63,785 bases of DNA, filler included, from Reclinomonas americana ATCC 50394 (GCA_048213135.1; 20 parts of 20 records of this genome joined end to end with filler, not necessarily neighbours in it), one strand, 5' to 3'; positions 26,001-63,135 are shown, counted from the first letter of the whole stretch. Translations and numbers: made by a program. Notes: a model not told the origin generated them from the letters alone.

Positions 26001-29000
26001 GACAAGGGACAAAAAGGACTCGCCTAATTGCATGACAAACCGAGACGGTTGTCCTTGACCATCAGCGCCGACGCGTGAATCGGGTACGCACGAGCACCGT
26101 ACGCCTCAGCCTGTGCAGAGGTGAGCAAAGCAGTCACGCATGCATTCATTGCTTCCCGGCTCACCATCAAGCAGTGAGCGTGGTACAAAATGTCAATGCC
26201 AGCCATGTCGCCCATGCGGTACGGCTGCAGAGCAAGCAAGTCAGCACCGCTCACAACAAATATCTTTACCAAATACGCAACTCCCTGCGGCATGCCGAAA
26301 GCATTCACAATGGCATCGATGCGGTACGGCTCCACTCCGCGGTCGGTGAGGAAGGCGCACGAGCTGCGCACAAAAGTGAGCCACACTCCAGTGAGCAAGT
26401 GAGGAGTCCCTCGACAAACCTGGAGTACGGGAAGAAAATGCGGTTGACGGCGAAACCGGCGCAGTTGCCGACCACCACCGGCGTCTTGCCAATGGTCTTG
26501 GCAAAGGCGATCGAGTCGACGAGCACCTGAGCGGAGGTGTGGTCCGAGCGGACAATCTCCAGCAAGGGCATGACGTGGGCGGGGCTGCGCGAAGAGGGGG
26601 AAGGGGGGGGGGGGGGGGAGGGGGAGGAGGAGGAGAGAGAGAGAGAGATATATATCGTACCACGTACGCTACTACGTAGTAGTCGTACTACTCCTGTCGT
26701 ACGTACGTACTACTCCGTCCGTTNNNNNNNNNNNNNNNNNNNNNNNNNNNNNNNNNNNNNNNNNNNNTTAATTAATTAANNNNNNNNNNNNNNNNNNNNN
26801 NNNNNNNNNNNNNNNNNNNNNNNACTCTCTCCTTCCCTCTCTCTCTCTCCTTTCCTCTCTCTCCTTCCCTCTCTCTTTCTCCTTCCTGACCATTGCGGAC
26901 TCGACGCTGTCGATCTGCCTCACCTCAATGACCATGTCGACCTCGCCAAAGCCCGACCAGTCCTGCTGCGGGATAAAATTGCCAATGGCCTTGTCGAACG
27001 CCTCCTGCGACAGGCGCTTGGACTTCAGGCGACCCTCCAGAATACCTGCGAGATATAAGCAAAGTGTGACGGAAGAGAGCACTCCAATCACGTCACCTCG
27101 CACACGACCAATGGCCGCATCCACGCACTGCTGGTTGATCTCCTTGACGCGCACCTGCATGCCCTTCAGCAAGGCGCAGACGGCAATGCCGGCACCCATG
27201 AGACCACCGCCAACGACGGCGAGCTGAGCGGGACAAGATGTGAGCACAAACCAACTTGAACAGAAGGGCAGGAGAAACACACCTTGCGCACGACGCGCGG
27301 CTTCAGGCCCTGATCGGTGACGCCGGGCACGTTGACGGTGGCGCGCTGGGCAAAGAAGAAGTGCACGAGCGAGCTGGCCGTCTCGGTGTTGACGATGCGG
27401 CAGAAGGCCTCGGTTTCCTGAAATGGGGGAAGGGAGGGCAAGGGAGGAGAAGGGAGGAATGAGTGAAGGAGAGAGAGAGAGAGAGAGAGAGCATGCAAGA
27501 ATGCGCAGCGACACGGAGGGAGGCGCAGCGACACGGAGGGAGGCGCAGCGACACGGAGGGAGGCGCAGCGACACGGAGGGAGGCGGAGCGACACGGAGGG
27601 AGGCGGAGCGACACGGAGGGAGGCGGAGCGACACGCAGGAGGCACAGTGACACGGAGGGAGAGCCAGAAGGACACAATCCCTTGTGCTTTTACGCAACAG
27701 CCTGCAATCCAGCCTTGGATCCGCGCGTGGCACCCGCCTCCGTCACATTGATGCACTCGACCGTGTGCGTCACATTCGGGTTCTCCTTCTCCGCACGACG
27801 ACGAGCTGCAAGCTCACGTCAGCCACCCTTCCTCCCAACCCTCCCTTCCCCCTTTCCCCTTGCTCACCCTCCGTGCAAATCATCGACACCACGCCGGCGG
27901 CCTCCAGCTTGCGCGTGTACGTCAGCGACTCGCGGCGGGCCACACGGCCGGCGGCAATGTCGAGCGCCAGCTTGGCGGCGTCGGCGACCAGGGAGGCCGA
28001 GTCGCGGGTGATGGCGTCGATGAGGCCAATCTTGTGCGCGTCGGCGGCCTTGACGTGCTGCGACAGCAGCATCATCTCCAGCGCTTTTTGCACGCCCACC
28101 AGGCGGGGGAGGCGTTGTGTGCCGCCGAAGCCTTTATAGGGAAAGGGGGAGGTGAGGGGAAGGAGAAGAGGAGGTGAGAATAAGGGGAAGGGGAGGTGCG
28201 GAAAAGGAGAGGTGGATGTGAGAAAGAAGAGAAGCGATGTGAGAAAAAGGAGAAGGGGGTGTCAGGTTTAAAGAATGAGGGAAGAAGAAGTACGGCAGTG
28301 GGGGGAGGAGGAAGAATGAGGAGAAGGGGAGGTGAGAATATGGAGAAGGGGAAGTGAAATAATGAGGAGGGGATGTGAGAATAAGGAGAAGGTGGGTCGA
28401 GAAAAAGGAGAAGGGGAGGTGAGAAGAAGGAGATGGGGAGGCGAGAAGAAGGAACGGGGAGGCGAGAAGAAGGAACGGGGAGGTGAGAAGAAGGAGAAGG
28501 GGAGGTGCGGAAAGGGAGAAGGGGAGGTGAGAATCAGGAAAAGGGGAGGTGAGAAGAAGGAGAAGGGGAGGTGCGGAAAGGGAGAAGGGGAGGTGAGAAA
28601 CAGGGGAACGGGAGGTGAGAAAAAAGAGAAGTGAAGGCGAGAAGAAGAGGAGGGGGTGCGAATGAGTAGAAACAGAAAGGACAAAGAAGGACAGCAGTGG
28701 CGGGAGGAGGAAGAACGAGGAGGCAACGAACCGGGGATCAGGCCCAGCTGCAGCTCCGGCAGGCCGACGTTCGTGTTGGGCGTGGCGATGCGGGCGTGGC
28801 ACGACATGGCGAGCTCGAGGCCACCACCTGTTAGAGGGAAAGGTGAGACTCATGCAGGGGACATGACAGAAAGAGCGAGCACACGTACCGAAGGCCATGG
28901 TCTCCAGAGCGGCGACGGTCGGCTTCGAGGCGCTCTCGATGGCGTTGAGGGCGGCATTCGTCTCGCTGATGAAGGGCTCAAAGTCGGCGCCTGGGATGCG

Positions 29001-29462
29001 AAGGAGGGTGAGTGAGGTAAATGGAGAGGGAGGAGAGAGCGCGAGATAAAGGAGGAACGGAGAGAGAGCGAGAAAAAGAGAAAGAAAGCAAGAGAGAATA
29101 TGAGAAAGAGAGACGGGAACGGAGAGAGTGGAGAGAAACATTCGAGAGCAAGAGAAAGAGAGCGAGAGGGAAGAACAGAGACAACTGACAACAAAGTAAG
29201 GCAAACTGAGATTTAAAACGCACATCAACANNNNNNNNNNNNNNNNNNNNNNNNNNNNNNNNNNNNNNNNNNNNTTAATTAATTAANNNNNNNNNNNNNN
29301 NNNNNNNNNNNNNNNNNNNNNNNNNNNNNNCTCTTCCTCTTCCCCTCCTTCCTCTCTCTCTCTCTCTCTCTCTCTGCCCTTCTTTGTCTTCACCTCGGGG
29401 TTGAGGTGATTAAGAATGACTTCCTGTCGACGCTGAGCTGACGATGATGATGATGAGGCCAT
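20078..29462 (-). CDS. Single-chain peroxisomal trifunctional beta-oxidation enzyme: PTS2 + MFP2/AIM1-like hydratase-dehydrogenase fused to a KAT/ACAA1-like 3-ketoacyl-CoA thiolase
   Basis: Exon 29394-29462 encodes [23 protein letters not shown]. Crotonase motifs [12 protein letters not shown] and [24 protein letters not shown] (28.0-28.8 kb). [21 protein letters not shown] and [12 protein letters not shown] (27.2-27.4 kb). [13 protein letters not shown] and [13 protein letters not shown] (26.4-26.6 kb). Exon 24564-24798 reads GGLIKYAD...RPSPYL...[11 protein letters not shown] without a stop. Thiolase motifs [29 protein letters not shown] and [14 protein letters not shown] follow, with TAG at 20078. 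A few exons are hidden in gaps. Confidence 0.9.
20280..21020. repeat. Intronic minisatellite, unit about 120-160 bp
   Basis: Recurring TCTCACTGCACAACGGCTGCTCTCTCACCCCCTCTCATTCTC...CACTCTCCGTCGCTC. Confidence 0.75.
21356..21820. repeat. 12-bp tandem repeat (GAGGAACG[GA]AGA / GAGGAACGCAGT) in a thiolase-region intron
   Basis: Directly visible. Confidence 0.9.
27503..27660. repeat. 20-bp intronic tandem repeat GCG[CG]AGCGACACGGAGGGAG, about 7-8 copies
   Basis: Directly visible. Confidence 0.9.
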
Positions 29463-29836
29463 GATGTATGCGTTGTCTTCCTCGACGACTGTGGCGAGTG
29501 GAGAGAGAGAGTATGCGCGCGCTCGTGCAGCGGGTCGGATTGTTGCGATAATCTCTGCAGGACGCGGATTGCAAAGTGTGAAGTCGACTGGGTTCTCCTT
29601 TGTCTGGAAGGCGGACGGAGAACAAGAAGAGCGGCGTGAAAAGACATTGTCTTTTTACAACGGCATACATCTCTTTCTTGCAACAAGAGAAGTGCGAAGC
29701 TTTACTCCCAACAGCTCCATGTACACCTTTCTGGTGATGTGACTCAGGTCCACATATCTCTTCCGACAAAGACTCAAGCACACCAACACAGAGACACAAT
29801 TAGTCTACTCCAAGCAGTCATCTTCCCATTCAGGAA

Positions 29837-32800
29837 TCACATTACAGAGCACCTGCGCTGCCGACGACCACTTTCGGGACCGTGACGTCGCTGTTGCTGC
29901 TCAGATTGGTCTCGACGGCGCCGGCACTCTGAAAGCCACTTGACTGCTCGCACCGTCTTCGGATCATCTTCACCAAGCACCGCTCGCATACCATCCACAC
30001 ATTCAACCAACAGTGCCTCCGCCTCGGCCCATCGCTGCAGCTTCAAAAGTAGGTCACCGAAGTTGTACATCGTCAGCAATGTGTTATAATGCCCGTCACC
30101 AAGCATCTCTCGCCGACCCTCCAAACACTGACGGTACAAATCAGCAGCTTCTGCCAGTGATACTGGCGTGTTTTGTAGCTCGAGAGAATAAGCAAGATTA
30201 TTCATCGACATGAGAGTGTCTGGATGTCGGTCTCCCAGCGATGCTCGCTCCAACTGCAAACATTCTCGTTTCAGTCGAATCTCCTCCTCCAGACGACTGC
30301 CACCTTGGATACATGCGGCAACATTGCCCATGGACGCCAACGTGTCTGTATGTTCAGCCCCGAGAACAAGTCGCCGCATCTCCCAACACCGTCGCCAGAG
30401 TGCCTCAGCATCAGCAAATCGCTTCTGATTGTAGTGGTGCATGCCCTGCCAATGCAGCGTCCACAGCGAGTCCGGATGACTCTCCCCCAGAGTCACACAC
30501 TGCCTTTCATGACACTGCACCAGCAGAGGCAAGTTACCTGAACAGTAAGCAAGCCACATTAAGCACCGCAACGCATCAATCGTATCCAGCACAGTCATCT
30601 CGCCACTGCCGCACCTCTCCCACTCCTCGCACAAACGCCACGCCTGCTGCCACGTAGCTTCGCGTTCGTCCCACTGACGATGTAACTCAAACAATCGCGC
30701 TTGAGACTTGGCCACCACCATGGCAAGCCACCGTCGCACAGGACTCCTCTCAACATCACCAACACCTCGTTGTTCCCATTCTGTCATACGTAGAACAAGA
30801 GAAGTGACCATTGCCGCGTCAAATCCTCGCGATGGAAGACCTCCACAACGCTGCTCACCAATCCACTCGACAGCGCCACACTGCACCAGCAGCCCATTCA
30901 CACCAACAGCATCACTCGCCCACATTCCATCATCTTCACCCAACAGGCGCCACACCGTGTGCAGCACACCGAGCAGGTCTCGCGACACCAGCAGCGCACC
31001 GTCACTATCATTTCGATCGATGCCACTCAGCACGCAGCACACCAGTCGCAAAATCAATCGCTGCATTCGTGACACTGCATCTCCACATCGTCGCACAATC
31101 CACCCAGCAATCTCATCGTGTACTCGATACTCCATCGCCACATCGCCACCCCCTCCCACATGCTCGCCACACAACACACGCGCGACACTGTCCATGCTGC
31201 CACTTACACCCACCGTCACCAGATTCGACATGCACAAACCCTCCAGCACATCCTCCACTCGATCGTCACCACCAACCACCAACGCATCACGCCTTGCACG
31301 CACTCTTCGCTCCTCCTCCTCACTCACCTCGTCAAACTGCAGTCGCTCACCCACCACCTCGGGCGCGCGTCGTCGCCTCTCCTGTGCCAGCTCATGCAAT
31401 CGTAATCGACGCACACACTGACCCAACTCCACCAGTCGACTTGCCGTCTCCTCATTTTCTGCTACTGCAGCCTGCCTATCATCACCACCACCCACAGCCA
31501 CCGCCATATCGGGTATCACTCGCAACACACCCAGCGCCACTCGCGCGAGTGCAACTGTCACTGGTAAGCCGAGTTCCTTGCACGCCGTGATCAGCACCAA
31601 TAGTCGACGTGCTGCTGCTGTCTGCGACATCACATTGCGTTCCAGCAGCTGCGACAACGCATCACCACCAATACCACTCAGCACCTCCTCCAGTCGCGCT
31701 CCCACCAGCTGTGCTGGCAATTGTGACAGCAACCAGCTGCATGAAGAAGAAGAAGAGAAGAGAGAAGAGTGAGTCTTCTCATCCACACCACGTACTCACT
31801 CACTCACTCACCCAACACAAGCACTCACTCGCAGTGCACTATTCTCCTGTTGTCCACTCTCCAGCGCCTCCACAATCCGTCTTCGTACATCCACCGACAC
31901 CTTGTGAAGCAGTCGCTCCTCCACCAGCTGCATGATGTCCTCGTTCTCCACGCTCTCCACTCGCTGACACTCCGCCTCCGCCTCGTGCATCATCGAGTCA
32001 CGAATCTCATCCGCCACTTGTCCATATCGACTCGTCACCACCACAATCGGTGCCACCATTCCACCTGCGCACAACCAGACACATGTTGCACATCAAGTCA
32101 GGATCAGAACATCCACGCAAGAATGAGAATTCTCTCTCCTGAAACGAACCCTCATCAGCACATTGAACAACACTCCTCACTTGCTCCGCCGATCCCACAT
32201 TGTCCAGCACCATCACTCCGCTCGATGCATGCATCAGCTGTCGCACCAGACGACGTGCTGGCTCCACCTCGCCACTCGCCAGCAGCGCATCCACCTGACC
32301 GGCCATCCTCCGTCCCTCGACTTCGTCCACTCGCATCTGTGCCGTCACAAAGGCGCGCAGACACTCGCCCAGTGCACTCTCCGCCTGCAACATGTTGCAA
32401 GGAGAGGGAGAGAGTCAGAATGACAGGGTAGGAGATGGTGCATCAAGAAGACATGCATGTTCCTCACACACACACACACACCTTCACATGCTCCCTCGCA
32501 TCACCCACATGACCACGCATCTCCACCGACACGGTTGATCCCTTCCATCGACGAGTCGCCACCAACTCGGTCACCAGCAGCTCGGCCAGGAACGACTTGC
32601 CAGTGCCACCCTCGCCCGTCAGCACCACCATGATTGGTTGATGGGCTGTGCAAGAAATCATCCATCACAGACAACGTGATAAGAGACACACGAATACGGA
32701 GACGGAAGGAAGGGAGAAAGAGAAGGAACACCCAACCATCCACTGCCGCCACAATGCGCATGGCAAGTGAGGCAGCCAGTGCACGCCGACTCGGGAAGCG

Positions 32801-33715
32801 GAATACAGTCACTGGATTCAAGGTGCGGGCGATGAGTGGTGTCTTGGGTGGTCGCCTGCTGTCAGGAGCTGTGCGGTACGAAGAGAGTGAGCACGCACTC
32901 AATGCACATCCAATGCAAGTCCATCATGGAACACACCTACAGCTGAGGGAGAAGAAGGCGACATGCTCAGCGTGTCAAGCCGCTGGTGCACACGCTCCAT
33001 CTCCACCCGCATTGTCGCCTGCACTACCTGGTAATCAAATGCCAGTGAGAAACAATATCTGCAAGCGACCGCATCTGCATGCAGATCCACATAACTTGCT
33101 CCACATTGGCCGCCATCGATGCCTGGTCTGCTTGACTCAGTGCACCTGCATTTACACAATAAAGACAGCATCAGCTTTCACATCAATCAAATCATCCAGA
33201 CACACATGCACCAGCCATCTCTCTCTCGTCACTCACCATCACGAGCCTCGTTCAGCTGCACCACCACCTCCTCCTCCACATCCCTGCCAATCTGCAGCTG
33301 CCGCACAAGCTGGTGCAACTCGCCTTCTCCTCCTCCTCCGGCACCGAGCAGAGGCACAAAGAGTGCACGAGCTCGTGCGGGACTCGCCTGCTCAAACACC
33401 TCCCTCATGCGCTCAATTGCATTGCGCTGTGTACGATGAGAAAGTGAGAGGTACAATCACACAAAGAGAGAGATCACACTTCTCCTCCTCCCCATCTCCT
33501 TCTCACACACACTCACCACATCACCAACTGGAATCAGACGATCCGGCTCTTCTCTCGGGTGCTCTCGATGACCCGCCAGCAGCAAGATCGAGCAGCACAG
33601 CATCGCATCAAATGAACTGCAGTCGTGCAACTGGCCTCGCTGATGCCACTCGCGCACCAACTGACGCTCCCTGTCGTTCAACTGGACACACATGTCCACT
33701 CCGTCTGGCATGGTT
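29837..33715 (-). CDS. NLR-like STAND NTPase-TPR protein, copy 1 (alpha subtype; first two exons hidden in a gap)
   Basis: Walker A GEGGTGKS (~32595-32618), Walker B VMVLDNV, sensor-1 IVVVTSR, MHD-like YRVHDE, kinesin-light-chain-type TPRs (LGxxHxDTL), C-terminus RRQRRCSVM. Confidence 0.8.
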
Positions 33716-34283
33716 CTGCATGTGGGAAAGGCACAAAGAAAGAGAGGATGCTGGTGAGTGAGGGAATGTGTGTGACAAGAAAGTGGAGGTATTCATCAGG
33801 GATAGAATGTGGAGTCGTGTGTGGCNNNNNNNNNNNNNNNNNNNNNNNNNNNNNNNNNNNNNNNNNNNNTTAATTAATTAANNNNNNNNNNNNNNNNNNN
33901 NNNNNNNNNNNNNNNNNNNNNNNNNGTTGACTGTGGCGAGTGGAGAGAGTGTGTGTGTGCGCGCTCGTGCAGCGACGGATTGTTGCGATAATCTCAGCAG
34001 GACGCGGATTGCAAAGTGTGAAGTCGACTGGGTTCTCCTTTGTCTGGAAGGCGGACGGAGAACAAGAAGAGCGGCGTGAAAGGACATTGTTTTTTTACAA
34101 CGGCATACATGTGCCGTTTCTTGCAACAAGAGAAGTGCGAAGCTTCACACCCAACAGCTCCATGCACACCGTTCTGGTAATGTGACTCAGGTCCACATAT
34201 CTCTGACCGACAAAGCAGACCCAAGCACACCAACACACAGACACAATTAGTCTACTCCAAACAGTCATCTTCTTATTCAGGAA

Positions 34284-37200
34284 TCACATTACAGAGCACC
34301 TGCGCTGCCGACGACCATTTTCGGGATCGTGACGTCGCTGCTGCTGCTCAGATTGGTCTAGGCGACGTCGGCACTCCTCCAACCACTCGATGGCATCCAC
34401 AGTCTTCGGATCATCTTCACCAAGCACCGCTCGCCGACCATCCACACACTCTACTAGCAGTGCCTCTGCCTCGGCCCATCGATGCTGCCTCATGAACAGC
34501 CTGCCGCAGTTACAGATCGACTGCAGTGTGTTAACATGCCTGTCACCCAGCACCTCGCGTCGTCCCTCCAAGCACTCACGCAACAAATCAACAGCTTCCG
34601 TGCTCTGTTGATTGAGAGAATAAGCAAGATTATTCATCGACATGAAAGTGTCTGGATGCCGATCTCCGAGACCTGCTCGCCTCAACTGCAAGCATTTTCT
34701 GTTCAGCTGAATCACTTCCTCCAGGCGACTGCCATCTTGGATACATGCGGCAACATTGCCCATGGACATCAACGTGTCTGGATGCTCAGCTCCAAGAACC
34801 AGTCGCCGCATTTCCCAGCACCGTCGGAAGAGTGTCTCAGCATCAGCAAATCGCTTTTGACTGTACTGGTGCCTGCCCTGCCACTGCAGAGTCGATAACG
34901 AGTCTGGATGGCACTCGCCCAACGCCACACACTGCCGCTCATGACATTGCACCAGCAGTGGCAAATTGTCTGAATAGTAAGCAACCCACATCAAGCACCG
35001 CATTGCGTCAATCTTATCTAGCACAGTCATCTCGCCACTGTCATCCCTCTCCCAATCCTCGTACAAATACCACGCCTGTTCCCACGCAGCTCGGCGATCA
35101 TGCCAATCCTGTTGCATATTAAACAACCATGCGTGACACTTTGTCATCACAAAACAAGACCGTCGTCGCACTGGACTCATTACAACACCGCCACCTCCAC
35201 GTGCACGTCTCTCGCACCGTGTCACGAAATGTTCAAGGAAATTGACCACCGCTGTGCCGAATCCAACAGATGGCAGCTTTCCCCACGCACGTTTCTCGCC
35301 AACCCACTCAACCGCTCCACACTGCACCACCAACCCGTTCACACCAACGGCCTCTTTCGCCCACATGCCACCGTCGACCCCACCCAACCGTCGCCACACT
35401 GTGCGAAGCACATCGAGCAGGTCTCGCAACACCAACAGCACACCGTCACTGTCCATCTGTGAATCAATGCCAGTGAGCACACAGCACACCAGTCGCATAA
35501 TCAGTCGCTGCGTTCGCGACACGGCATCTCCACATCGTCTCACAATCCACCCAGCAATCTCATCGTGTACTCGATACTCCATCGCCACGTTACTCTCTCC
35601 CACATGCTCACCACAGAGCACACGCGCAACACTGTCCATGCTGCTACTGACGCCCACCGTCACCAGATTCGACACGCACAGACCCTCCAGCACATCCTCA
35701 ACTCCTTCGTCATCACCCACCAACTCATTGCGCCGTGCACGCACTCGTCGCTCCTCCTCCTCACTCATCTCGTCAAACTGCAGTCTCTCACCCACCACCT
35801 GTGGCGCACGCCGTCGTCTCTCCTGTGCCAGCCGATGCAATCGCAGTCGACGCACACACTGACCCAACTCCACCAGTCGGCCTGCTGCCTCCTCATCTTC
35901 ATCCGTTGCCGCCACGTCGTCTTCATCCACACTCGCAGCCCGCTCATTCTCATCGTCATCCACAGCCATGGTCATATCGGGAATCACTCGCAGCACACCG
36001 AGAGCCACTCGCGCAAGTGCCACTGTCACTGGCAAGCCGAGTTCCTTGCACGCCGTGATCAACACCAACAGTCGACGTGCTGCCGCTGTCTGCGATATCA
36101 CATTGCGTTCCAGTAGCTGTGACAGTGCATCGCCACCAACGCCACTCAGCACCTCCTCCAGTTGCGCGCCCATCAGCTGTGCTGCTGATTGAGACAGCAA
36201 CCAGCTGCATGACGAGAAGAGAAGGAGAGAAGAGTGAGTCTTTTCATCCATAAGCCGCTCACTCACTCATAGCACTCACCCAACACAAGCACTCACACGC
36301 AGTGCACTCTTCTCCTGTTGTCCACTCTCCAGCGCCTCCACGATCCGCCGTCGCACATCCAGCGACACTATGCCGCGAAGTCGCTCCTCCACCAGCTGCT
36401 CAATGTCCTCGTTCTCCACATTCCCCACTCGCACAGACTCCACATCCGCCTCGTGCATCATCGAGTCACAGATCTCATCCGCCACTCGCCCATATCGACT
36501 CGTCACCACCACAATCGGTGCCACTATTCCGCCTGCAGAAGGACACGCACGCATGATGCACATCAAGTCAGGATCAAACATCCAAGCAAGAATGAGAACT
36601 TTCTCATGACACACACACACCCTCGTCAGCACACTGAACACTCCTCACTTGCTCCACCGATCCCACATTGTCCAGCACCATCACTCCACTCGATGCGTGC
36701 ATCAGCTGTCGCAGCAGTCGACGTGCTGGCTCCACCTCGCCACTCGCCAGCAGCGCGTCCACCTGGCCCGCCATCTTGCGTCCCTCTACTTCATCCACTC
36801 GCATCTGTGCCGTCACAAAGGCACGCAGACACTCACCCAGAGCACTCTCCGCCTGCAGCATTTGGCATGGAGAGAGAGAGAGAGTCGGAATGACAGCATC
36901 ATGAAAAACAACATGCATGTTCCTCACACACACCTTCACATGCTCCCTCGCATCACCCACATGACCACGCATCTCCACCGACACGGTGGATCCCTTCCAC
37001 CGACGACTGGCAAGCAATGCGGTCACCAGCAGCTCGGCCAGGAATGACTTGCCAGCGCCACCATCACCCGTGAGCACCACCATGATTGGATGGTGTGCTG
37101 CACAAGAATCATCCACCACAGACAACACGATGAGGCACGCGAATGTAGAGAAGGGAGAGGGAGAATGAGAAGTAACACCCAACCTTCAACAGCATCCACA

Positions 37201-38514
37201 ATGCGCGTGGCGAGTGAAGCTGCCAGTGCACGCCGACTGGGGAAGCGGAATGCAGTCACTGGATTCACGGTGCGGGCGATGAGTGGTGTCATGGGCGGAT
37301 GGCTGCTGTCTGGTGTTGTGTGGCACGGAGAGGAGTGGGTGTGAGCTTAGATATGCACATGCATTGCATGTCCATCATGGAACACACCTACAGCTGAGGG
37401 AGAAGAGGGAAAGATGCTCAATGTGCTCAGCTGCTGTCGCATGAGCTCCATCTGCGCGAGCAGTACGGCCTGACTCTGATCAATCACATCCAGTTAGAAA
37501 CATGGAGCCATCTGCAAGCGACCGCCTCCACATGCAAATCCACTCAACTTGCTCCATATGTGCCAGCAGCAATGACTGGTCTGCTTGACTCAGTGCACCT
37601 GAATTCACACACACAACCAAGACAGCATCAGCTTCCATATTGAACCAAATCATCCAAGCACCGGTCATCTCTCTCTTTCTCTCTCTGTCTCCACTCACCA
37701 TCACGAGCCTCGTTCAGCTGCACCGCCAACTCCTCCTCCACATCCCTGCCAATCTGCAACTGCCGCACAAGCTGGTGCAGTTCGCCCTCTCCTCCTCTTC
37801 CGTCACCGAGCAGAGGCACAAAGAGTGCACGAGCTCGGGCAGGACTCGCTTGCTCAACCACCTCCCTCATTCGCTCAATCGCATTGCGCTGTGGACAATG
37901 AGAGATTGAGAGACATAATCACACAAAGAGAGAGTTCACGCCCTCCTCCTTCCATCTCATTCTCAGACTCACCACATCACCAGCTGGAATCAGACGATCT
38001 GGCTCGTCTCTCGGGTGCTCTCGATGACCCGCCAANNNNNNNNNNNNNNNNNNNNNNNNNNNNNNNNNNNNNNNNNNNNTTAATTAATTAANNNNNNNNN
38101 NNNNNNNNNNNNNNNNNNNNNNNNNNNNNNNNNNNACATCTCCATTCTGCACCTTCCCATCACGTGCTTCTACATTCCTTCCTCACACACTCACCGCACA
38201 TCACGCTCACTTGGTGCCTTGCACCACTCGGCAACATGATTCACACCGGGATATGAATCGAGAAACGCCGGCAGCACTTGCTCAAGCTTGGATTGCAGAG
38301 CGCGGGTGCACGGACGAGACAGACCTTTGACAAGGCGCATCGCACATTCCTCATCACCAGCATCGTGATGATGACTGCACGAGAGGAGAGAGGAGGAGAG
38401 TGACAGGGAATGAATCACACACAATGCGAGAATGGTGATGATGATGACGCATCTGACAAGTAACACAACGAGAGAGACACGCAACTCACGCGACACTCCA
38501 CTCCCACTCGCCAT
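34284..38514 (-). CDS. NLR-like STAND NTPase-TPR protein, copy 2 (beta subtype)
   Basis: ATG at 38514 (MASGSG...), GDGGAGKS, VMVLDNV, VVTSR, YRVHDE, TPRs, C-terminus RRQRRCSVM. One exon is partly in a gap. Confidence 0.8.
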
Positions 38515-39219
38515 GATGATGCGTCACAACAAGAAGAATAACAAGCAGCACAATGACAAGATGCACAGGGGAATGACAATCTCTCTCTCTCTGTAACACA
38601 ATAAGAAGCGGAGAAAATACGACAACTTGCTCTCCTTCTCTCCTTCTCTTGCACACACACACACTCAAGGTGGGGAATGACACTGTCACAGAACAGAACA
38701 GAGAACACACAAGCTCACTTCTGCTCAACACCACACCGAGACTCGCTGTCAGACAGTCGTGGGACATGACTTCGTCGCAGTGCACGCTGGCTCACAAGAC
38801 AGAACAACGCGTCACTGAGCAGAGGCATGTGCTCACATGTACACTGAGACACGAGCGCGTTGAAACATCGGTGAGCAAGATGAAACGTCGAGAGATCGTC
38901 AAGAAGTTCTCAGAGGAGCAGGATCATTGATCGTTCACGACATCACCCTGGCCTCTTTTGCACAGAAAGGCATCACTCTGCTCTGCTCGCGAAGAAACAG
39001 TCTCAGATCATCCCCACCATCAGTGTTGGAAAAGAGAAGAGCTTGTCCATTCATGATTCACCTCACACTGGCCTTTCTTGCACGCCGTAACATGAAAGGA
39101 GCATAACTCTGCTCTGCTTGCAAAGAAACCCTCCCTTCCGCCCTTTTTCCCATTCATCAATGGCAAACAAAACACACCATACATTCACCCTTCTCCTCCC
39201 CCTTCTCCCTTCGCCCCCC

Positions 39220-53620: not shown

Positions 53621-54341
53621 GATGATGCGTCACAACAAGAATAACAACAACAGCACACTGACAGATGCACAGGGGAATGACACACGCGCGCTCTCTCTCT
53701 CTCTCACTCTGGCACAATATCAAAGCAGAGAAATACAACAACTCGCTCTCCTTCTCTCCTTACTCTTGAGCACCCGCACGCAGTGGGGAATGACACTGAC
53801 ACAGAACAGAACAGAGAACACACAAGCTCACTTCTGCTCAACAGCAACAACTCACACTCCTGTCTGTCAGACAAGTCGTGGGACATAACTTCTGGCTCAC
53901 ATAACAAGACAGAACAACGCGTCACTGAGCAGAGGCGTGTGCTCACATGTACACTGAGACACGAGCGTGTTGAAACATTGGCGAACAAGATGAAACGTCG
54001 AGAGACCGTCAAGAAGTTCTCAGAGGAGCAGGATCATTGATCGTTCACGACTTCACACTGGCCTCTCTTGCACAGAAAGGCACCACTCCGCTCTGCTTGC
54101 GAAGAAACGGTCTCAGTCCATCCCCGCCATCAGTGTTGGAGAACAGAAGAGAGCTGGTCCATTCATCATTCACAACATCACACTGGCCTCACTTGCACGA
54201 CACGACATGAATGGGGCATAACTCTGTTCTGCTTGCAAAGAAACCCTCCCTTCCGCCCTTATTCCCCCTCATCAATGGCAAACAAACACACCATACATTC
54301 ACCCTTCTCCTCCGACTCCCCCTTCTCCCTTTCCCTCCCCC

Positions 54342-55510
54342 TCAATCCCCCCACACAGCATCCGCCGCCGCCGCCAACAACATCGCCTCATATGACGACG
54401 ACCCCGACCCCGACATACCCCCACCACCTCCACCCCCACCACCTGCACCACTTCCTCCCTCCCCATCCATCCCCTCCCCCACCTCATCCTCATCGCCCAG
54501 CCGCTGAAACGCCCGCTCCTCATACAACTGCATGTGCAGCGAGATGCACTCGCTCACCAACTCCAGAATCGCCGTCTCGCACTTGCTGCGCAAACTCAAC
54601 TGCTCCCACCACGCTTGTGGCCGCTCGCTGAGCATGCGGAACAAGTGCAACGACACCGACGACGTGCGCTGCATGTCGTTGGTGACGGCGTAGCCGAGCT
54701 CGTCGCACATCGCACTGAATTCCTCCGCCACAAACGTCACGTCGTCCTTGCACTCTTGCACCGCCGCACCGACGCCGTGCTCGGTGGAGCGGCCGCGTTT
54801 GATTTCTTGCACGCAGCGTTCCCGCATGCCCAGGGCGTACCACAGTAGGCGGTCCAGCGGGAGACGCACACGCTCTGTGGATGGCGGCGATTCCACCGCC
54901 TGCCACTCGGCCAGCAGTGATTCGAGCACCTTTTCGGTGGTCGACAGCGACTTGATGGCGTTGTCATCCCCACCATGGAGGAGGAGGGCGGGAGTACCGA
55001 GTACGGCGACGAGGCTTGCATGCTAGTGGTCGAGTGAATCGCGGAGAATGGAGTGAAGCGGGTGACGAGGTCGATGTTGCGAGACTGTTGAGGTTAGAGA
55101 TGGGTGAGACGCTTTTCACAGACCGAAAGCTCTCTGGTATCACAAACCGCATCAGCGTGCATCCACTCGTCCACGCCGGGAGGCCACTTGAGGCCATCCA
55201 TGGCCCACTTGTCACGTCGTTGCAGCAGTCGGAGGTCACAGGTCATGGCGAAGAGCCTGCGAAGGTGGGAAGGGAGAAGGAAATGCATATGAGAATCACT
55301 GCATCACTGTCATTCTTCCATCTTCACTCTCCTTCTCGCTCTCACACACACACACACTCTTACTGCATCAGTCTCTCTGTCTTTCTTGGTTGCTTACCTC
55401 CTCAGCATCCAGTGGAGAGCGCGATGGGCCAGCAGCACTGCCGCTCAACTCCGCAGCGGAACCCTGCATGCAGAGAGTGAGTGAGTGCAACTCCGAGGAA
55501 GAGACATGTT
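54342..55510 (-). pseudogene. Duplicated 3' fragment of gene B with a frameshift
   Basis: Net 7-nt deletion at ~54975 relative to the 39.8, 46.1 and 62.1 kb copies breaks the frame. Confidence 0.65.
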
Positions 55511-55952
55511 CGNNNNNNNNNNNNNNNNNNNNNNNNNNNNNNNNNNNNNNNNNNNNTTAATTAATTAANNNNNNNNNNNNNNNNNNNNNNNNNNNNNNNN
55601 NNNNNNNNNNNNGGAGAGAGAGAGTATGCGCGCGCTCGTGCAGCGAGATTGTTGCGATAGTCTCTGCAGGACGCGGATTGCAAAGTGTGAAGTCGACTGG
55701 GTTCTCCTTTGTCTGGAAGGCGGACGGAGAACGAGAAAAGCAGCGTGAAAGGACATTGTTTTTTTACAACGGCATACATGTGCCGTTTCTTGCAACAAGA
55801 GTAGTGCGAAGCTTTACTCCCAACAGCTCCATCCACACCTTCCTGGTAATGTGACTCAGGTCCACATATCTCTTACCGACAATGCAGACCCAAGCACACC
55901 AACACACAGACACAATTAGTCTATCCCAAACAGTCATCTTCACATTCAGGAA

Positions 55953-58900
55953 TCACATTACAGAGCATCTGCGCTGCCGACGACCATTTTCGGGATCGTG
56001 ACGTCGCTGCTGCTGCTCAGATTGGTCTAGGCGACGTCGGCACTCAGCCAGCCACTTCATGGAATCTTCCGTACGCTCGTCCTCGTCACCAAGCACCGCT
56101 CGCCGACCATCCACACACTCTACTAGCAGTGCCTCTGCCTCGGCCCATCGATGCTGCCTCATGAACAGCCTGCCGCAGTTACAGATCGACTGCAGTGTGT
56201 TAACATGCCTGTCACCCAGCACCTCGCGTCGTCCCTCCAAGCACTCACGCAACAAATCAACAGCTTCCGTGCTCTGTTGATTGAGAGAATTGGCAAGATT
56301 ATTCATCGACATGAAAGTGTCTGGATGCCGATCTCCCAGCGATGCTCGCTTCAGCTGCAAGCATTCTCGTTCCAGTTGAATCACTTCCTCCAGGCGACTG
56401 CCATCTTGGATAGAAAATGCAACATTACTCATGAGTGCCAACGTGTCGGGATGCCAAGCTCCAAGAACCAGTCTTCGCAACTCCCAACAACGTCGATAGA
56501 GTGTCTCAGCATCAGCAAATCGCTTTTGACTGTACTGGTGCCTGCCCTGCCACTGCAGAGTCGATAACGAGTCTGGATGGCACTCGCCCAACGCCACACA
56601 CTGCCGCTCATGACATTGCACCAGCAGTGGCAAGTTGCCTGAATAGTAAGCAACCCACATCAAGCAGCGCATTGCGTCAATCTTATCTAGCACAGTCATC
56701 TCGCCACTGTCATCCCTCTCCCAATCCTCGCACAAATACCACGCCTGTTCCCACGCTGCTCGGCGATCATGCCAATTCTGTCGCATATTAAACAACCATG
56801 CGTGACACTTTGTCATCACAAAACAAGACCGTCGTCGCACTGGACTCATTACAACACCGCCACCTCCACGTGCACGTCTCTCGCACCGTGTCACGAAATG
56901 TTCAAGGAAATTGACCACCGCTGTGCCGAATCCAACAGATGGCAGCTTTCCCCACGCACGTTTCTCGCCAACCCACTCAACCGCCCCACACTGCACCAGC
57001 AGTCCATTCACACCAACACTATCATTCGCCCACATGCCACCGTCGACCCCACCCAACCGTCGCCACACTGTGCGAAGCACATCGAGCAGGTCTCGCAACA
57101 CCAACAGCACACCGTCACTGTCCATCTGTGAATCAATGCCACCCAACACACAACACACCAGTCGCACGATCAGTCGCTGCGTCCGTGACACTGCATCTCC
57201 ACATCGTCTCACAATCCACCCAGCAATCTCATCGTGTACTCGATACTCCATCGCCACGTTACTCTCTCCCACATGCTCACCACAGAGCACACGCGCAACA
57301 CTGTCCATGCTGCCACTGACGCCCACCGTCACCAGATTCGACACGCACAGACCCTCCAGCACATCTACCACTCCGTCGTCACCGCCAGCACCCACCAGCT
57401 CATCACGCCGTTCACGCACTCTCTCCTCCTCCTCCTCACTCATCTCGTCAAACTGCAGTCTCTCACCCACCACCTCGGGTGCACGCCTCCGCCTCTCCTG
57501 TGCCAGCCAATGCAATCGCAGTCGACGCACACACTGACTCAACTCCACCAGTCGGCCTGCTGCCTCCTCATCTTCATCCGTTGCCGCCACGTCGTCTTCA
57601 TCCACACTCGCAGCCCGCTCATTCTCATCGTCATCCACAGCCATGGTCATATCGGGAATCACTCGCAACACACCCATCGCCACTCGTGCGAGTGCAACTG
57701 TCACAGGCAAGCCGAGTTCCTTGCACGCCGTGATCAGCACCAACAGTCGACGTGCTGCCGCTGTCTGCGATATCACATTGCGCTCCAGCAGCTTCGACAG
57801 CGCATCACCACGGATGCCACTCAGAGCCTCCTCCAGTCGTGCACCCACCAGCTGTGCTGGCGACCGTGACAGCAACCAGCTGCATGGCGAAGAAAATGGG
57901 AGAAGAGAGAGAAGAGAGTGAGTTTTCTCATCCACGAGCCACTCACTCACTCAGCACTCACCCAACACAAGCACTTACTCGCAGTGCACTCTTCTCCTGC
58001 TGTCCACTCTCCAGCGCCTCCACGATCCGCCTTCGCACGTCCACTGACACCTTGTGGAGCAGTCGCTCCTCGACCAGCTGCACCATGTCCTACAACAAAC
58101 AAAACACTTCATTCACCACATTCCAGTAATGCGACAAATGTCCACAAATCCCTTGCCGNNNNNNNNNNNNNNNNNNNNNNNNNNNNNNNNNNNNNNNNNN
58201 NNTTAATTAATTAANNNNNNNNNNNNNNNNNNNNNNNNNNNNNNNNNNNNNNNNNNNNTTGACCTACCGACAAGTAACCTTGCGGGCACTGGTTGTACAT
58301 CCTGCTGGCATTGCATTTCTGTGAGTGAGGGTCATTCTCCACATTCTCCACTCGCACACACTCCACCTCCGCCTCGTGCATCATCGAGTCACGAATCTCA
58401 TCCGCCACTCGCCCATATCGACTCGTCAGCACCACTATCGGTGCCACCATGCCACCTGTACACAGACACACATGATGCATATCAAGTCAGGATCCAACAT
58501 CCAAGCAAGAATGACGATTCTCAATCTCGTGACACACTCACCCTCATTAGCACATTGAACAACATTCCTCACTTGCTTCATCGATCCCACATTGTCCAGC
58601 ACCATCACTCCACTCGATGCATGCATCAGCTGTCGCACCAGACGACGAGCTGGCTCCACTTCGCCACTCGCCAACAGCGCATCCACCTGACCGGCCATCC
58701 TTCGTCCCTCCACTTCATCCACTCGCATCTGCGCCGTCACAAAGGCACGCAGACACTCGCCCAGAGCGCTCTCCGCCTGCAGCATTTGGCATGGAGAGAG
58801 AGAGAGAGAGAGTCGGAATGACAGCATCATGAAAGAAAACATGCATGATCCTCCGCACACCATCACATGCTCCCTCGCATCACCCACATGACCGCGCATC

Positions 58901-60664
58901 TCCACTGACACGGCCGATCCTTTCCACCGACGGGTCGACAGCAACTCGGTCACCAGCAGCTCGGCCAGGAACGACTTGCCAGTGCCACCATCGCCCGTCA
59001 GCACCACCATCATTGGCTGGTGTGCTGCGCAGGAATCATCCACCACAGACAACACGATGAGACACATCAATGTGGAGAAGGAAGGAAGCGAGAAGGACCT
59101 CCAAACCTTCAACAGCATCCACAATGCGCGCGGCGAGTGAGGCCGCCAGCGCACGCCGACTTGGGAAGCGGAATGCGGTCACTGGATCGACGGTGCGGGC
59201 GATGAGTGGTATCTTCGGTGGGTGACTGCTGTCTGGTGCTGTGTGGCACGGAGAGGAGTGTGAGCACAGCAGTGCACATTCCACGCAGATCCAGCATGGA
59301 ACACACCTGCAGCTGAGGGAGAGGAGGGAGAGATGCTCAACGTATCAAATCGTTGGTGCACACGCTCCATCTGCATATGCACAGTATGCATTTCCATCCG
59401 TATCTGATCAATCGACACACAAGTGAGAAACAGAGAGGCACCTGCAAGTAACTGCCTTCCCTCATGCAAACTCACTCAACTTGCTCCACATTAGCTGCTA
59501 TCGACGCTTGGTCAGCCTGACTCAGTGCACCTGCATTCACACACAACCAGACAGCATCAGCTTCCACATTCAACCAAATCATCCACACTCAAACACCAGC
59601 CATCTCTCTCCCTTCACTCACCATCACGAGCCTCGTTCAGCTGCACCACCAATTCCTCCTCCACATCCCTGCCGATCTGCAGCCGCCGCACAAGCTGGTG
59701 CAACTCGCCTTCACCTCCTCCTACGTCACCGAGCAGAGGCACAAAGAGTGCACGAGCTCGTGCAGGACTCGCCTGCTCAAACACCTCCCTCATTCGCACA
59801 ATCGCATTGCGCTGTGACAATAAAAGAGTGAGAGAAAGAATCACGAAGAGAGAGAATCACACTCCTCTTCCTTCCATCTCCTTCCCATTCTCACACACTT
59901 ACCACATCGCCCGCAGGAATCAGACGATCCGGCTCGTCCCTCGGGTGCTCTCGCTGACCCGCCAACAGCAAGATTGAGCAGCACAGCATCGCATCAAACG
60001 AACTGCAGTCGTGCAGCTGGCCTCGCTGGCGCCACTCGCACACCGTCTGCTGCTCCTTCTCGTTCAGCTGGACGCACATGTCCACTCCGTCTGGCATGGT
60101 GCTGCATGTGGGGAAAGGCACCAAGAAAGAGAGGATGCTGGTGAGTGAGGGAATGTGTGTGACAAGAACGAGGATGCATTCATCAGAGATAGAATGAGGA
60201 GTTGAGTGGAGAGACGATGAAGAGCGTGAGAATGGGGGAGAAAGAGATGACCAACGCGTCACCATCTGCCACTTGCTTGCGGCAATCTTCTCTTCTCTCA
60301 TCTGCATCTTGCCATCGAGTGCTTCTGCATCCTCCCCCCTCACTCACCGCACATCACGCTCACTCGGCGTCTTGCACCACTCATCGACGTGATTCACACC
60401 GGGATACGAATCGAGAAACGCCGGCAGCACTTGCTCGAGTTTGAATTGCAGAGCGCGGGTGCATGGACGAGAAAGGGCCTTGACAAGGCGCATCGCGCAT
60501 TCCTCGTCACCAGCATCGTGATGATGACTGCACGAGAGAGGAGAGAGAGGAGGAGAGAGCCAAAAGGAACGTCAGACAAAATGCGGGAATGATGATGATG
60601 CATCTGACAACAACACAATGAGAGAGACACGCAACTCACGCGGCACTCCACTCCCACTCGCCAT
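55953..60664 (-). CDS. NLR-like STAND NTPase-TPR protein, copy 6 (beta subtype; most complete, with an insertion at ~58091-58331)
   Basis: About 11 exons join in phase from ATG 60664. Walker A GDGGTGKS at 58972-58995, VMVLDNV, VVLTSR, YRVHDE, TPRs, RRQRRCSVM. Confidence 0.8.
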
Positions 60665-61373
60665 GATGATGCGTCACAACAACAAGAAGAGCAACACACT
60701 GACAGATGCACAGGGGAATAACTATATATAAGAAGCGGAGAAATACACAACTCACTCTCCTTCTCTCCTTCTCTCTTGAGCACACGCACGAACACACAGT
60801 GGGAAATGCCACGGACACCGCCAGAACAGACACAAAAGCTCACTTCTGCTCACAGCAGCAGCAACAGCAAACCAATGATACGTGGGACATGACTTCGTCG
60901 ATATCGCGATGTGCACGCTGGCTCGCAAGACAGAATAACGTGTCGCACGAAGTGAGGCATGTGCTCTCATGTACACTGAGACACGAGCGTGTTGAAACAT
61001 TGGCGAACAAGATGAAACGTCGAGAGACCGTCAAGAAGTTCTCAGAGGAGAAACATCGTTGATCGTTCACGACATCACACTGGCCTCTCTTGCACAGAAA
61101 GGCATCACTCTGCTCTGTTGCGAAGAAACAGTCTCAGTTCACCCCCACCATCAGTGTTGGAGAACAGAAGAGAGCTTGTCCATTTATCATTCAACATCAC
61201 ACTGGCCTCACGTGCACGTTGCAACATGAAAGGGGCATAACTCTGCTCTGCTTGCGAAGAAGCAATCTCTTTTCATCCCCACTGCCTCCGTTCCCCTTCA
61301 TCAATGGCAAACAAAAAACACACCATACATTCACCCTTCTCCCCCTTCTCCCTTCTTCCCCTTTTCTTTTCGA

Positions 61374-63135
61374 TCAATCCCCCCACACCGCATCCGCCGC
61401 CGCCGCCAACAACATCGCCTCATACGACGACCCCGACCCCGACACACCCCCGCCACCACCACCCCCACCACCACCCCCACCACCACCCTCCCCATCCACC
61501 CCCTCCCCCACCTCATCCTCATCGCCCAGCCGCTGAAACGCCCGCTCCTCATACAACTGCATGTGCAGCGAGANNNNNNNNNNNNNNNNNNNNNNNNNNN
61601 NNNNNNNNNNNNNNNNNTTAATTAATTAANNNNNNNNNNNNNNNNNNNNNNNNNNNNNNNNNNNNNNNNNNNNTGCACTCGCTCACCAACTCCAGAATCG
61701 CCGTCTCGCACTTGCTGCGCAGACTCAACTGCTCCCACCACGCTTGTGGCCGCTCGCTGAGCATGCGGAACAAGTGCAACGACACCGACGACGTACGCTG
61801 CATGTCGTTGGTGACGGCGTAGCCGAGCTCGTCGCACATGGCACTGAATTCCTCCGCCACAAACGTCACGTCGTCCTTGCACTCTTGCACCGCCGCGCCG
61901 ACGCCGTGTTCGGTGGAGCGGCCGCGTTTGATTTCTTGCACGCAGCGTTCCCGCATGCCCAGGGCGTACCACAGCAGGCGGTCCAACGGGAGACGCACGC
62001 GCTCTGTGGATGGCGGCGATTCCACCGCCTGCCACTCGGCCAGCAGCGACTCGAGCACCTTTTCGGTGGTCGACAGTGACTTGATGGCGTTGTCATCCCC
62101 ACCGGTAGTGGACGATGAGGAGGGCGGGAGTACCGAGTACGGCGACGAGGCTTGTATGCCAGTGGTCGAGTGAATCGCGGAGAATGGAGTGAAGCGGGTG
62201 ACGAGGTCGATGTTGCGGGACTGTTGTGGAGAGCGAGATGGGTGAGATGCTTATCACAGACCGACAGCTCTCTGGTTTCACGCACCGCATCAGCGTGCAT
62301 CCACTCGTCGACGCCGGGTGGCCACTTGAGGCCATCCATGGCCCACTTGTCACGCCGTTGCAGTCGCCGGAGGTCACAGGTCATGGAGAACAATCTGCGA
62401 AGAGAGCAAGGGAGAAGGAAATGCATATGAGAATCACTGCATCACTGTCATTCTTTCCATCTTCACTCTCCTTCTCGCTCTTGCACAAACACACATATTC
62501 ACGCATCAGTCTCTCTGTCTTTCTTTGTTGCTTACCTCCTCAGCATCCAGTGGAGAGCGCGATGGGCCAGCAGCACTGCCGCTCAACTCCGCAGCGGAAC
62601 CCTGCACGCGCGAATCATGCAAAGAGTGAGTGAGTGAGTGAGAGTGAGTGCAACTCCGAGGAAGAGACATGTCCANNNNNNNNNNNNNNNNNNNNNNNNN
62701 NNNNNNNNNNNNNNNNNNNTTAATTAATTAANNNNNNNNNNNNNNNNNNNNNNNNNNNNNNNNNNNNNNNNNNNNGGGGAAGACAAAGGGGGAAGACAAA
62801 GGGGGAAGACAAAGGGGGAAGACAAAGGGGGAGACAGGGGAGAGAAAGGGAAGAAGGGAAGATCGGAGGAGAGGACGCAACTACGCGCGAATGCAATTCC
62901 ACTTCCTCAGCAGTCAGGTTGCGCAGGAACGGTAATATCGTGGCCATGTCGACTTGTGAGTCACCCTGTGTGATGAAAGCAGTCAGCGATCACGCTTTGG
63001 ACGGGGGAAGCGTGGGTGAAGACGAACCAGCATCTCGAGGAAATCTTGCACACGACACAGCACTTCGTCAGAGCGAAGCAACTGAGTGCAAGCATCGAGG
63101 TACTCGGGACGCTCGGCCTCGGGGACGCATTGTTT
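61374..63135 (-). CDS. 3' part of an uncharacterised helical protein gene ('gene B') that continues beyond the window; probable parental copy
   Basis: Exons KQCVPEAERPEYLDACTQLL..., GDSQVDMATILPFLRNL..., LFSMTCDLRRLQRRDKW... and SRNIDLV...LDRLLWYALGMRERC...AAAADAVWGD* with GT-AG boundaries. Family not recognised. Confidence 0.55.

Follow-up and report, generated by a model that had tools for sequence, protein, structure and literature searches.

A candidate NB-ARC-like STAND-TPR gene family with a CaaX-type tail in joined contigs of Reclinomonas americana

What do the repeated genes in a 63,785-base stretch of the genome of Reclinomonas americana ATCC 50394 (GCA_048213135.1; this whole stretch is referred to as the window) encode, and do they really stand side by side? 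An initial annotation had described positions 29837-60664 as a tandem array of six NLR-like genes, each with an NB-ARC/STAND part and tetratricopeptide repeats (TPRs), and as a candidate protist innate-immune locus. The explanation that we favour, and which we consider probable as a whole, is that these are at least five to six paralogous genes, intact and of 10-11 exons, each sharing a ~7-kb head-to-tail unit with another gene (gene B). Their product would be a membrane switch of ~1,100 amino acids (aa), with an orphan helical N-terminus of ~240 aa, an NB-ARC-like STAND NTPase, a divergent helical or winged-helix-like middle part, four to five 42-residue TPRs of the kinesin-light-chain (KLC) type and a polybasic tail with a CaaX box as its last residues.

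Gene models and domain order

A six-frame scan of the window confined all six motifs named in the initial annotation to the minus strand of 29837-60664. Walker A, G[DE]GG[TA]GKS, occurs there at five sites (32593, 37045, 43950, 49582 and 58972), as does FRFPSR, while VMVLDNV and VV[VL]TSR occur at four sites each and LxxLxxSNLV and YRVHDE at six each. The general pattern G.{4}GK[ST] has only three other matches in the window, all in low-complexity sequence outside this interval.

Six minus-strand open reading frames (ORFs) of 593-665 aa, alignable from end to end, make up the large exon E11 of the six copies; the proteins are 75-78% identical to that of copy 1, and identity per column averages 82%. 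For the smaller exons, the upstream DNA of the copies was aligned and frame-compatible GT...AG pairs were enumerated between conserved coding anchors, leaving one homologous intron solution per junction (Table 1). The predicted GT-AG introns measure 66-103 nt, except for those containing an assembly linker and a 246-nt intron between E2 and E3. Joined together, E3 to E11 form uninterrupted frames in all four copies in which these exons are completely assembled, copies 1, 2, 3 and 6, with 1070, 1029, 1065 and 1102 codons including the stop, respectively, the frame of copy 2 being cut at its 5′ end by a contig end. The predicted in-frame joins of these four copies reproduce the NB-ARC motif order that had been read from the small exons, and splicing in vivo probably proceeds as modelled. 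The full motif set once ascribed to six copies is thus present in four, because gaps remove the Walker B and sensor-1 exons from copy 4 and E3-E10 from copy 5. Wherever the relevant exons are assembled, the motifs are there: Walker A and FRFPSR in five of five copies, and Walker B (VMVLDNV) and the sensor-1 arginine, or RNBS-B (VV[VL]TSR), in four of four.

Several copies depart from the common model. The acceptor AG of E7 in copy 2 is changed to AA, and the model uses an in-frame AG 6 nt downstream; E9 of the same copy carries a 3-bp in-frame deletion. In copy 4, a stretch from within E9 through E10 to the beginning of E11 (~700 bp judging by copy 1) is lost in linker 49232-49331. In copy 5, E3-E10 are absent from the assembly, and the piece beyond this gap contains E1, E2 and gene B. 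In copy 6 (58089-58455), E10 is enlarged by 22 codons that keep the frame and is split by an additional GT-AG intron holding linker 58159-58258. Neither is found in the other three assembled copies; this stretch could be an insertion or an artefact of the contig ends.

At the 5′ end, E2 is a coding exon: among the three copies with it, pN/pS (the ratio of non-synonymous to synonymous differences) amounts to 0.09-0.19 for the frame continuous with E3, as compared with 0.98-5.4 for the other two frames. When E1 of copy 6 is spliced at its strong donor, C/GTGAGT, its frame stops inside E2, and its ATG at 60664 is therefore doubtful as a start codon; a methionine inside E2 may be used instead, giving a protein of ~1,120-1,150 aa. 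The end coordinate 60664 of the initial annotation consequently stands as the ATG of a small upstream exon, and is questionable as the start of translation. A TATA-like element upstream of E1 of copy 6 was considered and dropped, as it is not conserved in two other copies.

The C-terminal 250 aa contain TPR_10 (E 5.3e-22 to 4e-28; 77.5-97 bits, cut-off 27.5) and TPR_12 (72-89 bits, cut-off 30.1) in all six copies according to Pfam. With a marker pattern, units of ~42 aa of the LGxxHPDTL type number five in copy 1 and four in copy 6, in agreement with the roughly four KLC-type repeats first proposed. Among 5179 candidates scored, 1199 were relatives of the TPR part at E<=1e-5; the 120 relatives listed are mainly bacterial kinase-TPR, CHAT-TPR and NB-ARC-TPR proteins with 29-44% identity, and 17 of these 120 contain NB-ARC. 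The TPR part also matches FxSxx_TPR below the cut-off (E 8.5e-25; PADLOC/NCBIfam), and TPR_NPHP3 gives weak below-cut-off matches in five of the six E11 exons (20-28 bits, cut-off 100).

The NB-ARC regions of these 17 PF00931-bearing relatives were aligned as a reference profile; on rescanning, PF00931 was found in all of them (E 4.8e-16 to 9.6e-6). The resulting hidden Markov model (HMM) scored 13.3-17.9 bits against the spliced non-TPR parts of copies 1, 2, 3 and 6, and 11.6 bits against the N-terminal fragment of copy 4, with 3.2 bits for the best of 250 shuffles. In hhalign comparisons, the spliced family aligned with the NB-ARC references over 347-373 columns (Prob 95.9-96.3%, E 1.4e-9 to 5.8e-9), as compared with Prob 0.1% for the reversed query and 0.3% for a kinase template. 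The alignment pairs the P-loops with each other, VMVLDNV with IvDNaDd, VVVTSR with iL-TSR and FRFPSR with FvGR, which agrees with the earlier view of FRFPSR as an FxGR-like pre-P-loop motif. Together, the hhalign and HMM matches indicate that the family is a distant relative of NB-ARC-type STAND NTPases.

Two parts of the protein are less readily placed. LxxLxxSNLV...YRVHDE, present in all six copies, resembles a winged helix with an MHD motif. The N-terminal ~240 aa gave no Pfam match with single exons as queries and contain no recognisable effector domain, and the candidate domains HET and TIR were rejected at hhalign Prob 0.1-0.2%; an effector at this end, as in the architecture cited for comparison in the initial annotation, is a guess.

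All six copies end in the same tail, RRxDQSEQQQRRH..GRRQRR-C-S-[VI]-M-stop (at 34284, 40844, 47442, 51347 and 55953 in copies other than copy 1), in which RRQRR and C-S-[VI]-M directly precede the stop codon; the last four residues are C-S-V-M in five copies and C-S-I-M in one. This is the arrangement of a CaaX box, with the cysteine at -4, an aliphatic residue at -2, a last residue of the farnesyltransferase type and the stop directly after it. CaaX endings of this type are farnesylated in Ras proteins and lamins, and the polybasic CaaX tail therefore predicts a C-terminal membrane anchor adjoining the TPR end. The combination of CaaX, farnesylation, NLR and NB-ARC was not found in the literature searched, supplements lying outside the search, and a looser search returned nothing relevant by title.

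Divergence, gene B and the order of the copies

Pairwise synonymous divergence (dS) of E11 is 0.11-0.16 among copies 2, 5 and 6, and 0.39-0.47 otherwise. The ratio of non-synonymous to synonymous divergence (dN/dS) is 0.26-0.35 for pairs of spliced coding sequences (0.20-0.24 in the NTPase part and 0.23-0.41 in the middle and TPR parts), indicating that these are working genes and not debris. Judged by their substitutions, the copies are old paralogues under purifying selection; all six E11 exons are open, at pairwise dS of 0.11-0.47, and the reading as an expanded set of diverged paralogues is supported. In 30-codon windows, the most variable stretch lies between YRVHDE and the first TPR.

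In copy 2, the N-terminal part is nearest to copy 3 (dN 0.035) and E11 nearest to copies 5 and 6. This mosaic, contained in one contig, suggests gene conversion or unequal exchange (crossing-over) among units. At the DNA level, E11 of copy 2 is 92-94% identical to those of copies 5 and 6, and the upstream exons are ~84% identical to copy 6 (36409-38035 as compared with 33942-36409).

Each ~7-kb unit includes gene B as its second gene, upstream on the same strand, and four copies of it are assembled. The protein of its ~140-aa core is identical or nearly so across the four copies (dS 0.17-0.30, dN/dS 0.04-0.33), and gene B encodes a helical protein that is more strongly conserved than the STAND-TPR gene. 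In one of five structural models it forms a bundle of long helices with a predicted local distance difference test score (pLDDT) of 64.6; Foldseek found no match to this model in the PDB at E<=0.001. No family match was obtained, including in PADLOC and NCBIfam, and the ESM Atlas returned nothing at >=0.8. A motif common to gene B and the N-terminus of the STAND-TPR protein, which would fit amyloid signalling, was sought and rejected (best local match E 0.53). In the copy-3 unit, the GGT-rich stretch that encodes the Gly-rich C-terminal tail of gene B (45466-45700, minus strand) has a frameshift, and the core is unaffected.

The order of these units depends on how the window was put together. 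It contains 38 runs of exactly 44 N, that is, 19 pairs around the 12-mer TTAATTAATTAA, which provides a stop codon in all six frames; the window consists of 20 contigs of 1.0-7.9 kb joined by 19 artificial 100-bp linkers of the form N44-TTAATTAATTAA-N44 (sites 7885-62775). Thirteen of the 19 linkers lie between 29231 and 61673, and the array as drawn comprises 13 separate contigs of 1.4-4.5 kb. Every unit-to-unit junction falls inside a linker and no contig spans two repeat units, so "tandem array" is a statement at the scaffold level only. From the proposed array of six, we retain six distinct 3′ exons, and the side-by-side order at that level.

Could the array be partly a product of assembly, made of haplotypes or chimeric joins, so that the true number, order and 5′/3′ pairing of the copies differ? 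We think this rather unlikely, despite the density of linkers and the lack of a contig across any unit junction. The contigs of the region end at homologous positions, adjoining AG/CT-rich low-complexity sequence, and their end sequences are the same at 40399, 55512 and 62675; copies 2, 5 and 6 are close to each other in E11; and copy 5 jumps from E11 to the piece with E1 and E2, skipping ~2.4 kb of gene. All this would fit such a product, as would the mosaic structure of copy 2, but the mosaic lies inside one contig. Moreover, all five linkers inside gene units of the family join their pieces in the right order and orientation, and an unrelated beta-oxidation gene is colinear across linker 26724-26823, with ECH and 3HCDH_N sharing a contig and 3HCDH_C lying on the adjoining one. 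The order of the contigs therefore reflects real linkage or reference information, and not random concatenation. Six distinct E11 exons, five P-loop parts and four upstream pieces also remain whatever their order.

The linkers behave as scaffold gaps of unknown size. Linker 61574-61673, in gene B of the copy-6 unit, is a zero-length gap, the contig of the copy-2 unit being unbroken there (39416/39417 as compared with 61573/61674); judging by copy 1, copies 4 and 5 lack at least ~0.7 and ~2.4 kb, respectively. More generally, apparent tandem arrays in linker-joined contigs are not to be taken as proven, and long-range features depend on the scaffolder.

Table 1. Features of the STAND-TPR copies, gene B and other parts of the window (positions counted from the first base of the window; gene models of copy 1 exons follow GT-AG)
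Feature	Position	Strand	Remarks
Copy 1 E3-E11	29837..33711	-	Single contig 29331-33825; E1/E2 lost in linker 33826-33925
Copy 1 C-terminal tail	29837..29914	-	Polybasic with CaaX-type box
Copy 1 E11	29837-31736	-	GT-AG model
Copy 1 E10	31812-32064	-	Sensor-1; GT-AG model
Copy 1 E9	32150-32384	-	Walker B; GT-AG model
Copy 1 E8	32482-32645	-	Walker A; GT-AG model
Copy 1 E7	32737-32868	-	FRFPSR; GT-AG model
Copy 1 E6	32937-33027	-	GT-AG model
Copy 1 E5	33096-33145	-	GT-AG model
Copy 1 E4	33237-33426	-	GT-AG model
Copy 1 E3	33517-33711	-	GT-AG model
Copy 2 E3-E11	34284..38035	-	Single contig 33926-38035; E3 5′-truncated by contig end
Copy 2 upstream exons	38195..38514	-	E1 ATG 38514; coding E2 38195-38374
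Copy 3 E9-E11	40844..43378	-	Contig 40500-43558; E8-E9 intron contains linker 43559-43658
Copy 3 E3-E8	43839..45071	-	Contig 43659-45098
Copy 4 E11	47442..49229	-	Without first ~56 codons; contig 46909-49231
Copy 4 E3-E8 and first 45 nt of E9	49332..50713	-	Contig 49332-50742
Copy 5 E11	51347..53170	-	Without first ~56 codons; contig 50843-53172
Copy 5 upstream piece	53332..55022	-	E1 ATG 53620; E2 53332-53511; gene B 54345-55022
Copy 6 E3-E11	55953..60097	-	Contigs 55613-58158 and 58259-61573
Copy 6 upstream exons	60348..60664	-	E2 60348-60527, in phase with E3; E1 ATG 60664
Gene B, copy-2 unit	39223..39963	-	Last exon ORF, 247 codons stop to stop; possible first exon ~39839-40192
Gene B, copy-3 unit	45466..46419	-	Core protein identical to other copies
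Gene B, copy-5 unit	54345-55022	-	On upstream piece of copy 5
Gene B, copy-6 unit	61377..62250	-	61675-62250 and 61377-61571, split by linker 61574-61673
Linker, example	33826..33925	.	N44-TTAATTAATTAA-N44; 1 of 19
ECH	28268-28849	-	Domain match
3HCDH_N	within 26824-27742	-	Domain match
3HCDH_C	within 26024-26668	-	Domain match

The beta-oxidation gene has multiple exons on two contigs and lies on the minus strand within 24201-29230. After 3HCDH_C, one open frame (24201-24911) contains a weak Thiolase_N-like stretch (E 0.031, below the cut-off), perhaps a thiolase that is fused to the gene or lies close beside it; a search with this thiolase-like ORF, aimed at placing the lineage, returned no match. 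Positions 1-24000 are mostly CT/AG-rich low-complexity sequence with long spurious ORFs; the ORF at 10483-11025 has only a weak match to F5_F8_type_C_2 (E 0.009). No Rfam family reached threshold anywhere in the window.

A putative membrane switch and its rivals

By analogy with NB-ARC/STAND switches, a C-terminal farnesyl group and the basic patch would hold the protein at a membrane, and the TPR end would keep the NTPase switched off with ADP bound. The NTPase would be freed once a ligand or a modified partner binds, and nucleotide exchange would then lead to oligomerisation, bringing the N-terminal domains together to signal on the membrane. The same analogy points to a possible immune or non-self role, and it is in this conditional sense that we infer a protist innate-immune locus.

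Several results weigh against this NB-ARC-like switch at a membrane. At the level of single exons, there was no match to the Pfam NB-ARC family PF00931 (25 families shown of the 29 matching the P-loop exon), so the initial assignment to NB-ARC/STAND stands at the profile level and not at that of direct family or fold matches. The P-loop exon gave below-cut-off Pfam matches to AAA_22 (2.5e-4), nSTAND3 (4.4e-4), NPHP3_N (0.019), NACHT (0.067) and AAA_16. In hhalign, the P-loop part alone gives 93.9%, as compared with 61% (E 8e-5) for everything except that part; thus, much of the signal, and not all of it, stems from the surroundings of the P-loop. No GLPL motif can be recognised: the position assigned to it by hhalign holds ...SALRVSACVG..., without GLP. 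The middle part is weakly supported. The part of E11 preceding the TPRs has no relatives in a word-indexed search, no matches at E<=0.001 in an HMMER profile search of 1.84 billion representatives and only chance-level, unspecific matches in a profile search of the PDB; its AlphaFold model, built with the six paralogues, is unusable (pLDDT 37.1). The winged-helix/MHD part by itself reaches only Prob 0.4-0.5% in hhalign, and the winged-helix and MHD-like assignment of the initial annotation thus keeps its motifs in all six copies and lacks backing from profile and structure. Prenylation, in turn, is predicted from a motif of four residues. Finally, there is no sign of diversifying selection, pN/pS in sliding 30-codon windows over six sequences reaching at most 0.72.

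Other searches with parts of the protein complete this picture. E11 had no Pfam NB-ARC match at E<=0.01, and the remaining single exons had no Pfam match. On the P-loop exon only, NACHT (PF05729) scored 13.5 bits (cut-off 26.7) and NPHP3_N (PF24883) 15.6 bits (cut-off 24.8). Sequence searches of the PDB with E8, E9 and E10 singly returned generic P-loop matches or nothing, and PADLOC and NCBIfam, apart from FxSxx_TPR in the TPR part, only generic P-loop matches. Further downstream of the expected GLPL position, a conserved ELGLPVTVAL aligns with the '..IP..lL' segment of the references; SQLPAQL was dropped as a GLPL candidate, as copy 2 lacks the proline and hhalign does not put the motif at that site. 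For the pre-TPR part of E11, the nearest ESM Atlas clusters are TPR-like (0.90-0.95), a weak lead given a recognition value of 2218, below the mark of 2300.

The same family could instead serve outside immunity, as an NPHP3-type membrane- or organelle-associated STAND-TPR scaffold or regulator amplified for dosage or stage-specific use, which we consider unlikely. Purifying selection throughout, with no window above pN/pS 0.72, is what such a scaffold would show, and an N-terminus without a known death or effector domain would suit it, as would the lipid-anchor signal conserved in the STAND-TPR copies, NPHP3 being itself lipid-modified. The weak matches of five of six E11 exons to TPR_NPHP3 and of the P-loop exon to NPHP3_N (E 0.019) point the same way, but they lie far below the family cut-offs, and the best profile relatives are NLR-like NB-ARC-TPR proteins with HET or TIR N-termini. 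Additionally, it is rare for a housekeeping scaffold to persist in five or six copies with protein differences of 22-25%.

The NB-ARC-like protein with a predicted anchor might be extended to its neighbour: in a bolder version, which we hold to be doubtful, a farnesyl-tethered STAND-TPR switch and gene B would form a two-gene cassette, amplified head-to-tail, that works as a membrane sensor/executor or guard/guardee module; such a layout is not known to have been described for NB-ARC-TPR proteins. Decay of a once-functional gene into pseudogenes is very improbable, for the insertion in the sensor-1 exon of copy 6 and the lost acceptor AG of copy 2 both keep the frame, the assembled exons of every copy are open and dN/dS is 0.26-0.35 at dS up to 0.47, which leaves the frameshifted gene B tail of the copy-3 unit as the remaining point in its favour.

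Comparison with known systems

NB-ARC-TPR proteins are the main candidate intracellular receptors outside plants and animals, and, to our knowledge, almost none of them has a known ligand, location or partner. The present family offers three handles: a conserved prenylation signal that predicts location, a partner gene that is always co-copied and natural variants, 75-95% identical, for swaps. If the anchor and the partnership are true, it would be a tractable model of a STAND switch wired to the membrane in a microbial eukaryote; if not, it would be one more lineage-specific NB-ARC-TPR expansion.

The closest relatives of the spliced NTPase at the profile level are the 17 fungal and bacterial reference proteins of the HET- or TIR-NB-ARC-TPR type (hhalign Prob 96%), with which it shares the 'DN' variant of Walker B and the 'TSR' variant of sensor-1; fungal NB-ARC-TPR NLRs are known from several papers. 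Unlike these references, the R. americana proteins have an N-terminus that is neither HET nor TIR (hhalign Prob 0.1-0.2%), no Pfam match to DUF7779 or NB-ARC on the pieces tested, and four to five TPR units as compared with 7-13 matched stretches, and they carry the CaaX tail in addition. With the NB-ARC of Apaf-1, CED-4 and plant NLRs, the family has in common the order of pre-P-loop motif, Walker A, Walker B, sensor-1 arginine and LxxLxxxSL...hxHD (MHD-like). It differs in giving no direct sequence match in PDB searches, in its unrecognisable GLPL and in having TPRs as the sensor in place of WD40 or leucine-rich repeats (LRR). Nephrocystin-3 (NPHP3_N plus TPR_NPHP3), which is single-copy in animals, likewise combines a P-loop NTPase with KLC-like TPRs in a eukaryote; the weak family matches are far below the cut-offs (20-28 bits as compared with 100, and 15.6 as compared with 24.8).

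Two systems from other non-plant, non-animal eukaryotes are likened here by description and not by sequence. According to passages of the report on Ectocarpus (Zambounis et al. 2012, PMC3341825), its NB-ARC-TPR genes occupy 24 loci, half of them physically clustered, and are proposed as candidate pathogen receptors, forming, like the genes described here, a multigene set with an NB-ARC-type NTPase and C-terminal TPRs. In Ectocarpus, each TPR has its own exon, and exon shuffling and diversifying selection are reported (PMC3341825), whereas in R. americana a single 1.9-kb exon encodes all TPRs and pN/pS is at most 0.72 in any window; those passages mention neither a CaaX tail nor a co-duplicated partner gene. 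For Acanthamoeba castellanii, a passage of another report (PMC4053784) lists a single NB-ARC-TPR homologue as one candidate pattern-recognition receptor of this free-living protist, as compared with the multi-copy family found here. The predicted lipid anchor, the co-amplified gene B and the orphan N-terminal and middle regions therefore set the R. americana family apart as a variant of the known NB-ARC-TPR architecture.

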